Source: Escherichia coli (GTDB lineage Bacteria > Pseudomonadota > Gammaproteobacteria > Enterobacterales > Enterobacteriaceae). From it: 2,519 bases of DNA. Where the stretch lies: the NCBI RefSeq assembly GCF_003334355.1, contig NZ_QOWP01000074.1, one strand, 5' to 3'. The notes beneath the pieces are model-generated. The model had not been told where the DNA came from. It saw only the letters and a program-made list of their open reading frames with translations, and searched no databases. Below are positions 1 through 2,442 of the stretch, piece after piece. The number at the start of each line of letters is the position of its first letter. The first letter of the stretch is position 1. A program made the translations under genes and the position numbers.

Positions 1-77
1 AAGGGCGAGCGTAGCGAGTGCCATTTACCCTTGACGACACTCCGGATAAAACAGGCTTGGCAGTGGTGGGGGGTGGC
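1..77. repeat. Terminal redundancy, copy 1: identical to 2443-2519. Indicates a circular molecule of 2,442 bp (wrap-around or assembler k-mer overlap).
   Basis: Base-by-base identity of the first and last 77 nt of the window. Confidence 0.95.
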
Positions 78-101
78 GCGAAGCGACGCCTTCCACCTGC
101 C
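59..101. other. GC-rich nested stem-loop region; alternative or additional oriT or protein-binding candidate.
   Basis: GGCAGTGGTGG (59-69) pairs imperfectly with CCACCTGCC (93-101). An inner GGCG (75-78) / CGCC (87-90) stem encloses the loop CGAAGCGA. Confidence 0.3.
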
Positions 102-149
102 AGACCGCCGTTGATTTTGACCTTCTGGCAGCTTGCTGCCCGAACGATT

Positions 150-192
150 TTGCGTAGCAAAGTCTAGTGAGTACACTATCATCCTGATAGTG
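150..192 (+). promoter_or_regulatory. Candidate mob promoter overlapping a perfect hairpin (CACTATCA-TCC-TGATAGTG, 174-192); candidate oriT/nic region and Mob autoregulation site.
   Basis: The -35-like TTGCGT (150-155) and -10-like TACACT (172-177) are 16 nt apart. The 8-bp perfect inverted repeat with a 3-nt loop lies about 70 bp upstream of the mob start. In MOBV plasmids (pMV158, pBBR1) oriT lies just upstream of mob and overlaps its promoter. No nic site is identified. Confidence 0.3.
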
Positions 193-258: not shown

Positions 259-1227
259 ATGGCGAACTACGCGATAATGCGCTGCAAAAAGCTGACGGGA
301 ATGGGAAGCGTGGCCAGCGCGTTGCAGCACTGCTACCGAGAGCGTGAGACGCCGAACGCTAACGCTGAACGGACACCAGAAAACTACTGCTCTGTGTCCA
401 AATCAACGGATCAGGCAATGGGGCGTGTGCGGGAGCTGCTGCCGGAAAAACGCCGTAAAGATGCGGTACTGGCCGTTGAATACGTTATGACAGCAAGCCC
501 TGAGTGGTGGAAAGAGGCCACACCACGGCAGCAGGCGGAGTTTTTCGCCCGCTCTGAGCAATGGCTGGAGAAGAAATACGGGAAGGATCGTGTTGTGGCG
601 GCGGTGGTTCACCGGGACGAGGCCACCCCGCACCTGTCTGCGTTCGTGGTGCCATTGACGCAGGATGGACGGCTGTCCGCGAAAGAGTTTATTGGCGGGC
701 GGTCAAAGATGCGTGAAGATCAGAGCACCTACGCTGAATCAGTAAAAAAACTGGGTCTTGAGCGCGGCATCGAGGGAAGCCGCGCCACGCATCAGACAGT
801 TCAGCACTACTACGAATCGATAAACCGTGGCACCCGTAGCCAGGTATCGATCTCGCCGGAGGCGCTGGAGCCGCGTGTATTGCGGAAGGGCATTTTCACC
901 AAAGACGTGGAAGATCAGGCAGCCATAGCCAAACGTCTAAGCCACGCAGTGAACGATGGCTTTGCAGGAACCATCGCTATGGCCTCTCAGAGCGCCCAGA
1001 ACGCAAAAAGAGCGCGTGAGCTACAGAAGACTATGGATGCGCAGCAGAAACGCCTACAGAGCGTCACAGAGCCTTTTAAGGGGCTTTCCAGAGAGCAGAT
1101 GACCGAAATCCTGATGATGGCTCAGCGGTTTAAGCAGCAAAACCAGGAAAAGGAAAAACAGCAGCGTATTGAACGTGAAAAACAGCGACAGACGCGATCG
1201 CGTGGCATGGGTGGTATGGAGCGTTAG
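259..1227 (+). CDS. mob: Plasmid mobilisation relaxase, Mob/Pre (MOBV) family, 322 aa from ATG 259. The ORF track's upstream in-frame ATG at 238 would add 7 residues (MPESGGN) and is less likely.
   Basis: N-terminus MANYAIMRCKK...SALQHCYRERE has the same layout as pMV158 MobM (MSYMVARMQK...FKHNER), including the HxxR motif with the conserved His. It also carries RKDAVLAVEYVMT and VVHRDEATPHLSAFVVP (HxDExxPH metal-binding motif), then GLERG and HQTV, all matching MobM from memory. A G-rich Shine-Dalgarno (AGGGGGG, 249-255) lies 3 nt before ATG 259. The long uninterrupted ORF is GC-rich and ends with a Q/E/K/R-rich C-terminal tail. Confidence 0.9.
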   Translation: MANYAIMRCKKLTGMGSVASALQHCYRERETPNANAERTPENYCSVSKSTDQAMGRVRELLPEKRRKDAVLAVEYVMTASPEWWKEATPRQQAEFFARSEQWLEKKYGKDRVVAAVVHRDEATPHLSAFVVPLTQDGRLSAKEFIGGRSKMREDQSTYAESVKKLGLERGIEGSRATHQTVQHYYESINRGTRSQVSISPEALEPRVLRKGIFTKDVEDQAAIAKRLSHAVNDGFAGTIAMASQSAQNAKRARELQKTMDAQQKRLQSVTEPFKGLSREQMTEILMMAQRFKQQNQEKEKQQRIEREKQRQTRSRGMGGMER

Positions 1228-1296: not shown

Positions 1297-1527
1297 TTAA
1301 TCATTCAGATGGTAATCATGTTTTTTTAAAATAGAAAAAGCTGCGTTTTTCTGCTTTGGTGACAAACCCTTAGTTGAGTATTTATTACCGCTAGTTCTAC
1401 GATATATGCTGTAAACACTGCTTAAAAAAGTACGCTCCCAAACAGTCAGAACCTCATTCTTTTTTAGTGAATCATGCAGCATTAGCCTGTCTACATTTTT
1501 AAAAAGTTTATCTTCAGCATTCATCAT
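1297..1527 (-). CDS. Hypothetical small basic protein (76 aa) of unknown function, probably co-transcribed with rep.
   Basis: The ATG-ATG start (1527-1522) overlaps the last 14 nt of rep in another frame. A GAAGG Shine-Dalgarno motif lies about 6 nt upstream on the - strand. Composition matches rep, and the stop is TAA at 1297-1299. No family recognised; the protein is Lys/Ser-rich. Confidence 0.4.
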   Translation of the reverse strand: MMNAEDKLFKNVDRLMLHDSLKKNEVLTVWERTFLSSVYSIYRRTSGNKYSTKGLSPKQKNAAFSILKKHDYHLND

Positions 1528-2017
1528 CCATTACCTTCGTCTGCACCGTTCTTCCATTGGTGTCATAACTGATCTTTAACTCAATTTTCTTTCTTCTTTC
1601 GTAAATTGATGGCCAGTCTCCCCGTGCAAAAAGAAAGGGGTTAGCTTCAAGTTCCCCACGCCCTGCCCGGAAGAATATTTGTTTATCTACAAGAGCCGCA
1701 ATTATGTTTTTAAAGGTCTGATATTCAATATGAACCCTGGGCTGTATGGTTTTTTCAAATCTAGTTTTTGATACAGACACAAACCCATCCCATCCAATCA
1801 GCATTGCCAATTGTAAAAGCACATCATTTTGAGATTTTGATAAACCATGAATCATCGCAATGTCTGCAATGTATAGCTTGACGTAGGGAGGTTCGGCTGG
1901 GATGGAAAAGGTCTCGATCTTAGAGTCTTGTTTTACCTCACCGTTTTCATCCATGTATGTATGCCGTTCAAGCCTAGAAATCTTTTTCGTATTCACTCCA
2001 GCCCCACGTTTCGCCAT
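1514..2017 (-). CDS. rep: Putative plasmid replication initiator (small, 167 aa, iteron-associated). Family not securely recognised; possibly a small RepL-like or winged-helix Rep.
   Basis: The ORF sits directly downstream, on its own strand, of a 22-bp iteron array and an inverted-repeat operator that reuses the iteron core. Its central segment (PPYVKLYIADIAMIHGLSKSQNDVLLQLAMLIGWDG) looks like a helix-turn-helix or winged-helix DNA-binding region. AT-rich codon usage matches the surrounding replication module. The function is assigned from context, not homology. Confidence 0.7.
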   Translation of the reverse strand: MAKRGAGVNTKKISRLERHTYMDENGEVKQDSKIETFSIPAEPPYVKLYIADIAMIHGLSKSQNDVLLQLAMLIGWDGFVSVSKTRFEKTIQPRVHIEYQTFKNIIAALVDKQIFFRAGRGELEANPFLFARGDWPSIYERRKKIELKISYDTNGRTVQTKVMDDEC

Positions 2018-2282: not shown

Positions 2283-2321
2283 AGCAAGGAGTGTACGCAT
2301 TTCTATGTACGGGGAGTGGAA

Positions 2322-2425
2322 ATTCCGCTTCCTCGCTTTGGCTGTTCGTTCCTCGTCGCGTTGCTCCTGCGGTACGCCTCAGCCAAAGCTGCGGCGAGCG
2401 GTTCCTGCTCTTTCAAAGACGATTT
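2322..2425. other. Segment resembling the region just downstream of the ColE1/pMB1 origin (as in pBR322/pUC backbones); candidate single-strand initiation or primosome assembly (ssi/pas-like) element. Contains a 10-bp inverted repeat (2335-2344 / 2380-2389).
   Basis: TTCCGCTTCCTCGCT (2323-2337) and GCTGCGGCGAGCGGT (2389-2403) are exact matches to strings I recall from the pUC/pBR322 backbone. The following 19 nt match at about 13 positions to ATCAGCTCACTCAAAGGCG. The intervening sequence differs and forms the stem GCTTTGGCTG / CAGCCAAAGC with a loop of about 35 nt. Function is assigned from memory. Confidence 0.45.
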
Positions 2426-2442
2426 CATTGCCTGATTTCGTC

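Follow-up and report, generated by a model that had tools for sequence, protein, structure and literature searches.

What does a GC-rich stem-loop do when it sits between the origin region and the mobilization gene of a small enterobacterial plasmid? The stretch of DNA analyzed here (the window; 2,519 nucleotides from Escherichia coli) covers a plasmid circle of 2,442 bp once and then runs on for another 77 nt. A first-pass annotation, made from the sequence alone, had drawn attention to nested inverted repeats at positions 59 to 101, which it described as an alternative oriT or a binding site for an accessory protein, in a region easily mishandled because of the wrap-around. The remark about the wrap was correct, as bases 1 to 77 are repeated at 2443 to 2519, and at the end of the window this duplicates only the 5' half (59 to 77) of the stem-loop, which we refer to as hairpin C.

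The plasmid has a G+C content of 49% and is of a common kind. A megablast search of PLSDB returned 427 records that share sequence with it, 33 of them near full length, and the near-full-length matches were mostly 2.44- to 2.46-kb cryptic plasmids of Escherichia, Klebsiella, Salmonella, and Enterobacter. The features needed for the argument are listed below in the order of their coordinates, with the basis for each in parentheses.

36-58, plus strand: spacer between hairpins B and C, with a conserved GAC...AAAAC...GCTTG (fold, conservation)
59-101, plus strand: hairpin C (stability, covariation in 20 variants, wobble bias)
102-122, plus strand: 3' flank of hairpin C, AGACCGCCGTTGATTTTGACC, in which (C)AGAC is nearly invariant; homology between plasmids stops near 113-120
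147-192, plus strand: MobV oriT (alignment with the pMV158 oriT and with MobV plasmids; sole nick motif)
259-1227, plus strand: MobV/Mob_Pre relaxase gene (NCBIfam MobV, 162 bits; Pfam Mob_Pre, E = 5e-45)
1514-2017, minus strand: rep gene for a RepL-like protein of 167 aa (tblastn, 23 to 36% identity to annotated RepL proteins)
2074-2170, no strand assigned: origin with four iteron-like 22-bp direct repeats (4.4 copies), upstream of rep (repeat detection)
2323-2401, minus strand: hairpin A with flanks like those of the ColE1 primosome assembly site (PAS) (17 variants, covarying arms; position relative to RNA I in the ColE1 replicons L013 and L009)
2440-2477 (that is, 2440-2442 plus 1-35), plus strand: hairpin B (fold, conservation, copies across phyla)

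Family profile searches with the 167-aa Rep protein returned no match. Between the convergent mob and rep genes lies a stable inverted repeat, GCCGCAAAGTGACGTCATTTGCGGC (1246-1288), which may be a bidirectional terminator, and the terminator scan gave no call there. A 76-aa open reading frame on the minus strand (1297-1527) shares 14 nt with the 3' end of rep and has no family match; many database records annotate two hypothetical proteins in this region.

Folded as plus-strand single-stranded DNA (ssDNA), hairpin C (GGCAGTGGTGGGGGGTGGCGCGAAGCGACGCCTTCCACCTGCC) has a free energy of −13.9 kcal/mol (z = −3.0; 3 of 200 shuffles were equally stable), compared with −10.4 kcal/mol (z = −1.8) for the minus strand. 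It is the top-ranked fold among all 43-nt segments on both strands (mean, −3.4; standard deviation, 2.5), with −13.9 kcal/mol unmatched elsewhere, and its G+C content is 74%, well above the plasmid value; the description of a compact GC-rich structure was apt. In the outer stem, 59-62 pair with 98-101, and GT at 63-64 is bulged. The main helix, continuous according to covariation, pairs 65-79 with 83-97 and contains a G76.A86 mismatch that is a T-A pair in other variants. Its apical part consists of G75-C87, G76.A86, C77-G85, G78-C84, and C79-G83 around a GAA loop (80-82) that lies within GCGAAGC, and at the base of the hairpin bases 50-56 are able to pair with 107-112, which would lengthen it. 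The outer arms first proposed (59-69 with 93-101) were therefore right, since 59-62/98-101 and 65-69/93-97 pair. For the inner arms (75-78 with 87-90) the correct bases had been named but in the wrong register, covariation giving 65-79/83-97.

Further copies of hairpin C came from two scans, one of species-representative genomes with hairpin B as the anchor and one of metagenomes with the invariant flanks alone as the anchor, which let the interior of the hairpin vary. The 53 copies obtained, from plasmids and metagenomes, represent 20 distinct sequences. Across these variants, 91.2% of the cells of the 19-pair structure hold standard pairs, compared with 36 to 48% when the partners are slid by 1 to 3 columns; the source plasmids are often closely related (many copies are more than 90% identical), and cells are not independent events. 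Both sides have changed in 9 of the 19 pairs, and the covariation score was reached by none of 500 shuffles. The two central pairs, for example, read GG/TT, GA/TT, AT/AT, TT/AA, or AA/TT in different variants. Run independently, RNAalifold recovered 13 of the 19 pairs, those of the inner and apical helix, and found compensatory changes in 7 of the 13; it did not call the outer stem (59-62/98-101). The distinct pair types, together with the slid controls, indicate a real constraint despite the kinship of the plasmids. These results confirm the stem-loop at 59-101 as a genuine structure that evolution has maintained: it is kept, with covariation, in related plasmids, and selection on it is for structure and not for sequence.

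The same variants count against several other explanations. With G runs of GG, GG, GGGGGG, and GG in its 5' arm, the element might be thought to form a G-quadruplex, but variants such as GGTGATTGG/CCAATCACC are without G runs and keep the helix, and the quadruplex is rejected on this ground. A functionless palindrome that is GC-rich by chance is excluded by the covariation and by the stability ranking across the plasmid, and we regard either form of this explanation as almost certainly wrong. A coding role was also rejected: an open reading frame of 49 aa (18-167) spans hairpin C, and 1-nt indels in two natural variants (L083 and L084) would break its frame.

Which strand, and which kind of molecule, forms the hairpin? 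Read on the plus strand, the non-Watson-Crick cells comprise 47 G.T and 2 A.C, A.C being the form that a wobble on the minus strand takes. All 20 variants are more stable as the plus strand, with a mean ssDNA free energy of −13.3 versus −10.7 kcal/mol for the minus strand. The excess of G.T and the greater stability of the plus strand together indicate that the functional form of hairpin C is a single-stranded nucleic acid of plus (mob) sense. Three groups of columns are invariant in the 20 variants, GGTG in the 5' arm, C..AG at the tip, and CACCTG (94-99) in the 3' arm, and the tip is a C-(G/A)NA-G triloop in every one of them. Hirao and Yoshizawa are said to have found that d(GCGNAGC) forms an unusually stable DNA mini-hairpin, and we take the GCGAAGC tip in the window to be of this type.

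Since wobbles of the G.U type suit RNA and ssDNA equally well, hairpin C could instead act in a plus-sense transcript, as a terminator, attenuator, or insulator between the origin region and oriT/mob. The rep-promoter region of pIGMS31 has an outward-facing promoter, and a short run of T (115-118) comes after the extended stem, a feature that several variants have too. However, a terminator scan made no call on either strand, and the T run is separated from the main stem by 13 nt and lacks conservation, being missing from the variants of MOBP plasmids, which read GCCGTTGCCCTGGG; an intrinsic terminator was rejected for these reasons. For an RNA element, a promoter is a further difficulty, as no sigma-70-like promoter reading in the plus direction through the block that hairpins A, B, and C form (see below) was found in the window. 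Nor is there an Rfam family for it, the C-GNA-G triloop is typical of DNA hairpins, and other parts of the block are homologous to priming sites that work at the DNA level. On balance we consider an RNA element unlikely.

Hairpin C does not stand alone. A distant blastn search divided the region 1-260 into two separate homology blocks, 1-113 and 141-257, the second of which recurs in diverged MobV plasmids of Pseudomonas/Serratia and Bartonella. Mapping on fetched plasmids showed that the first is part of a contiguous block of ~265 bp (window positions 2289-2442 plus 1-113) that carries the three hairpins A, B, and C. This block is portable. It is found in mobilizable plasmids of the MOBP/ColE1 type without MobV (L002 and L011), in a 1,526-bp RepL plasmid without a mob gene (L010), and in the MobV plasmids L003 and L008 at about 762 nt and 271 nt, respectively, from the oriT block. 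The order is constant, with rep reading away from the origin and followed on the other side of the origin by A, B, and C, although the block adjoins three types of Rep (the RepL-like protein of the window, annotated RepL, and a 108-aa helix-turn-helix protein) and keeps company with a MobV relaxase, a MOBP relaxase, or none. The ColE1-type plasmid L013, L012, and pHW104 have hairpins A and B without C; C is thus not indispensable to the block, as L013 and L012 illustrate.

Some records of the block call for caution. Near-identical copies on short contigs from Myxococcus xanthus, Flagellimonas, and Arthrobacter assemblies (L017, L019, L023, and L066) and in the end region of a Klebsiella phage record (OP617746.1, 173450-173584) most probably come from small enterobacterial plasmids by contamination or mis-assembly. 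Metagenome contigs in which the block occurs two or three times, at a spacing of ~2.0 to 5.4 kb (L075, L079, L083, L084, L061, and L099), have the appearance of concatemers assembled from these small plasmids or of chimeras that join different ones.

The portability of the block bears directly on the idea that hairpin C is an alternative oriT or a site for an accessory protein of the relaxosome in MobV transfer. The MobV oriT of the window consists of the inverted repeat TTTGC-GTA-GCAAA (149-161), GT, the 8 nt CTAGTGAG, then TA, and a second inverted repeat, CACTATCA/TGATAGTG (174-192), and alignment predicts a MobV nick between G171 and T172. The published minimal oriT of pMV158 is IR1 plus the 8 nt to the nick, ACTTTATGAATATAAAGT-ATAGTGTG/. 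Alignment with MobV plasmids of Pseudomonas, Bartonella, and Salmonella revealed compensatory changes in both inverted repeats, the second of which covaries with that of Bartonella pBGR1 (CACCAT..ATGGTG). A scan of the window found a single MobV nick-region motif, AAAGTCTAGTGAG (159-171), which lines up with the nick site of pMV158; the nick motif (AAAGTNTAGTGNG/T, 8 nt after an inverted repeat) is absent from hairpin C. The similarity to the Pseudomonas and Bartonella MobV plasmids starts at ~141 and leaves hairpin C outside. In pBBR1, oriT reportedly overlaps the mob promoter or operator, and by analogy the MobV oriT of the window probably does so too.

In 30 of the 53 copies of hairpin C, the MobV oriT core follows 56 to 69 nt downstream on the same strand, a proximity that favors a role in transfer; transfer of pIGRK, moreover, needs a G-rich element near oriT, though its relaxase is of a different type. 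Wherever the core is present it lies on the same strand and downstream of hairpin C (34 of 34 copies; none on the opposite strand), and this constant orientation may reflect shared ancestry, because so many copies are nearly identical. Against a role in transfer, the core is missing from the locus in 19 of the 53 copies, those of MOBP plasmids and of the mob-less plasmid included, and in 4 it is 271 or ~761 nt away, whereas the diverged Pseudomonas and Bartonella MobV plasmids have 141-257 without hairpin C. The stem bases covary freely, which argues against recognition of specific bases in a duplex. The alternative oriT is therefore abandoned, the nick motif being elsewhere and hairpin C occurring in MOBP and mob-less plasmids. 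Hairpin C is independent of MobV, and its presence in those plasmids and at long distances from oriT in L003 and L008 makes an accessory site in the relaxosome unlikely as well. Taken as a whole, we give a function in MobV transfer a very low probability.

Two further observations concern transfer regions. When the 43-nt segments are ranked by stability as ssDNA, second place in the plasmid (−12.9 kcal/mol) goes to the minus strand at 189-231, in the mob leader region just downstream of oriT. In the MOBP-type plasmids L002 (~3275-3400), L011, L080, and L012, a hairpin CCCGATGT...TGAGCGTAGCGAAATG...ACATCGGG, followed by TAGCCTTG and with GAGCGTAGCGA in its loop, is located ~90 nt after hairpin C, with a mobC-like gene just downstream, and probably serves as the oriT of these plasmids.

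Hairpin A is made up of TTCCGCTTCCTCG (2323-2335), a covarying stem (2336-2344/2380-2388), and TGCGGCGAGCGG (2390-2401), and it folds slightly better as the minus strand in 14 of 17 variants. In the ColE1 replicons L013 and L009, Rfam matches to RNA I fix the direction of RNA II; in both, CCGCTCGCCGCA...CGAGGAAGCGGAA is on the displaced strand, the lagging-strand template, and so is CGAGCGTAGCGAG in L009. Given this direction, hairpin A of the window is ColE1-PAS-like on its minus strand. Hairpin B, which varies very little, has a stem GTCAAGGG/CCCTTGAC and a nearly invariant loop core, CGAGCGTAGCGAG (2448-2460), in which a GCG-N-AGC mini-hairpin is set between GA and GA; TGCCATTTA comes after this core. 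Hairpin B presents the core 13-mer of the ColE1 PAS on the plus strand, the strand of hairpin C. With A on the minus strand and B and C on the plus strand, the block looks like two opposed signals.

The resemblance to the primosome assembly site of ColE1/pBR322 (n'-pas, ssiA) has several parts, in that hairpin A has its TTCCGCTTCCTCG...TGCGGCGAGCGG, hairpin B has its internal 13-mer CGAGCG(N)AGCGAG, and in both systems an origin is followed by the signal 100 to 300 nt downstream. Both motifs are on one strand in ColE1, however, whereas A and B are on opposite strands here. Hairpin C is without a counterpart in ColE1, and no C-like hairpin was found in the origins of L013 and L009, though the PAS is present in them. 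An Rfam search of the window detected neither RNA I nor RNA II nor any other family, and on this basis a ColE1 replicon was rejected. What the first-pass annotation had called a ColE1-like segment is hence a homologue of the ColE1 PAS but not a ColE1 replicon, and the placement of hairpin C, a cis-acting structure, between that segment and the mob region was borne out.

A second point of reference is the ssi-like palindrome of the pHW126 family (pHW126, pIGRK, and pIGMS31). Plasmids like pHW126 have been described as consisting of this palindrome, a conserved region, four iteron-like repeats, and rep, plus a MobV module. The present plasmid is likewise a small mobilizable enterobacterial plasmid of the MobV type, and its block (2289-113) occupies the same replicon position, beyond the conserved region and the four iterons (2074-2170) upstream of a rep gene of the RepL superfamily; the block is likened to ssi by this described layout. 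Unlike the single palindrome and single assumed strand described for that family, there are three hairpins here, with opposite strand preferences. In pHW126, pIGRK, and pIGMS31, ssi is dispensable for replication, and its loss leads to a higher copy number and rapid multimerization. The authors of the MobK (pIGRK) paper have reasoned that plasmids of this type ought to require two single-strand origins, one for each strand, and noted that only one was known.

Because loss of ssi leaves replication intact and produces multimers, hairpin C might be supposed to serve termination or the monomer state, as a pause site for a fork or for rolling-circle replication, a structure that terminates either, or a hotspot for recombination where modules meet, and homology between plasmids does break just past hairpin C, near 113-141. 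However, no Xer-type or other recombinase site was recognizable, and the strand-specific wobbles point to a single-stranded state and not to a duplex recombination site. Poor lagging-strand initiation is a classical cause of high-molecular-weight multimers in rolling-circle plasmids, and as the multimer phenotype fits such poor initiation too, it does not discriminate. We find this explanation improbable.

Known single-strand initiation signals resemble the B-C unit in some respects. Like ssoA/palA of Gram-positive rolling-circle plasmids, it is a strand-specific ssDNA structure, and the tip of hairpin B has a CS-6 sequence (TAGCGA, 2454-2459); TAGCGAGT is common to it and pT181-type ssoA, an 8-mer and so a weak basis. 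The RSB motif of ssoA (TTTATGCCGAGAAAA) was not found in the window with up to 3 mismatches allowed, CS-6 is absent from hairpin C, which has no equivalent in ssoA, and enteric copies of hairpin B, unlike ssoA, are not followed by a −10 box. A classical ssoA was rejected, as the RSB is absent and only TAGCGAGT is common. The G4-type origin of phage and the G4-type ssi of plasmids, which are primase-only signals, also have several stable stem-loops on one strand, with mini-hairpins of the GCGAAGC/GCGAAAGC type. The preferred template site of the E. coli primase (DnaG) is 5'-CTG-3', and an invariant 5'-CTG-3' is found at the 3' base of the hairpin C stem in all 20 variants; we presume that the mini-hairpins and the CTG together amount to a resemblance to G4-type signals. 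Homology was not part of it: a blastn search (word size, 11) of a phage collection matched no phage origin and returned only the plasmid-like stretch in one Klebsiella phage record, and G4-type homology of hairpin C was rejected.

The core of hairpin B has a far wider distribution than the block. Its 22 nt (GTCARGGGCGAGCGNAGCGAGT) recur as a closed hairpin in many distant phyla (L015-L072, L101), with at least 17 copies in one Myxococcales metagenome-assembled genome (MAG) and at least 12 in an unclassified MAG (JAKQBV01), where they are mostly at contig ends and often 8 nt away; it is also found in Clostridia, Acidobacteria, Chloroflexi, Nocardioides, and others. The loop, C-GA-GC-GNA-GC-GA-G, is a GNA mini-hairpin whose one free base is the middle position of the loop. 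The distant copies cap palindromes of 100 to 170 nt. One is beside a gene for the rolling-circle initiator RepSA (PF20199, E = 1e-74), one is near a gene for another such initiator, Rep_trans (E = 2e-16), and one is downstream of pre/mob in an Enterococcus plasmid, while others adjoin IS3, IS30, or IS110 transposases. Palindromes next to Rep and pre/mob genes are a further likeness to ssoA. In high-GC lineages (L038-L053, L059, L058, and L065), the B loop continues directly after AGCGAGT into a second mini-hairpin, its triloop being C-GAA-G or C-GCA-G, which looks like a nested equivalent of the hairpin C tip. By analogy, the distant copies support a putative single-strand-origin role for the B-C unit.

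The 3' arm of hairpin B, TTGAC(G/A), is followed 16 to 18 nt on by a −10 box (TATAAT, TACAAT, or TATCAT) in L020, L060, L062, L025/L027, L067, L072, and L101. As a general explanation, a sigma-70-type promoter with TTGAC as its −35 element was rejected, since a correctly spaced −10 box occurs in 7 of 45 distinct copies (1.4 expected), all of them non-enteric, and in none of the copies in A-B-C blocks; in the non-enteric copies the combination may be an ordinary promoter or a single-stranded-DNA promoter. A scan of viral contigs for the core found one contig only, and an Rfam search of 12 distant loci found no known family. In the literature searched, the core sequence was not found in print, a search for the literal sequence returning only listings of pUC backbones.

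We propose that hairpin C is part of a complementary-strand priming signal of the ssi/sso type on the plus strand, a reading to which we assign a probability of about 0.55. Hairpins B and C would fold once the plus strand of the plasmid is single-stranded and would help the host priming machinery to start the complementary strand. This reading draws support from the constraint on the structure of hairpin C, its strand bias, its triloop tip, and its place in the A-B-C block, from the ColE1 PAS homology of hairpin A and the presence of the 13-mer of hairpin B on the effector strand in L009, and from the position of the MobV oriT core, downstream of hairpin C on the same strand in all 34 copies that have it; the literature on the family, with its ssi loss phenotype and its two predicted single-strand origins, fits it. 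According to the predicted nick, MobV would transfer the plus strand. The 3' end of this strand would lie 70 to 170 nt from the B-C unit, and in the recipient a primer placed at that unit could lead to a copy of nearly all of the transferred strand. The plus strand would also be the lagging-strand template for a fork that leaves the adjacent origin away from rep, as in the geometry of the ColE1 PAS. The single-stranded state could be conjugative or vegetative, and the occurrence of B-C in the mob-less plasmid L010 suggests that a vegetative role matters too. Candidates for the acting enzyme are the PriA primosome, DnaG alone, and RNA polymerase. Hairpin A, the homologue of the ColE1 PAS on the opposite strand, would serve the minus strand, so that the cassette would have its two signals back to back, one for each strand.

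A more far-reaching version of this proposal, which we put forward tentatively and as one that may well prove wrong, is that B and C constitute an unclassified single-strand origin built of GNA-triloop mini-hairpins. It would be placed back to back with a ColE1-type primosome site in a ~265-bp cassette that primes both strands between the vegetative origin and oriT, and its 22-nt core would be conserved from Enterobacteriaceae to Actinomycetota, Chloroflexota, Myxococcota, and Bacillota. If this is true, the two-strand cassette would supply the "missing second single-strand origin" of the pIGRK authors, and the cross-phylum core of hairpin B could aid the annotation of single-strand origins in integrative elements and plasmids in which none are recognized today.

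Two opposed priming signals in one portable cassette make a testable model, and hairpin C, with its covarying pairs and assigned strand, is a precise target for mutagenesis of the ssi phenotype of the family. Cryptic plasmids of this kind, 2 to 3 kb in size, are very common in clinical and farm Enterobacteriaceae. Small mobilizable plasmids travel between hosts as single strands, and the way in which the complementary strand is started sets their host range, copy number, and stability.
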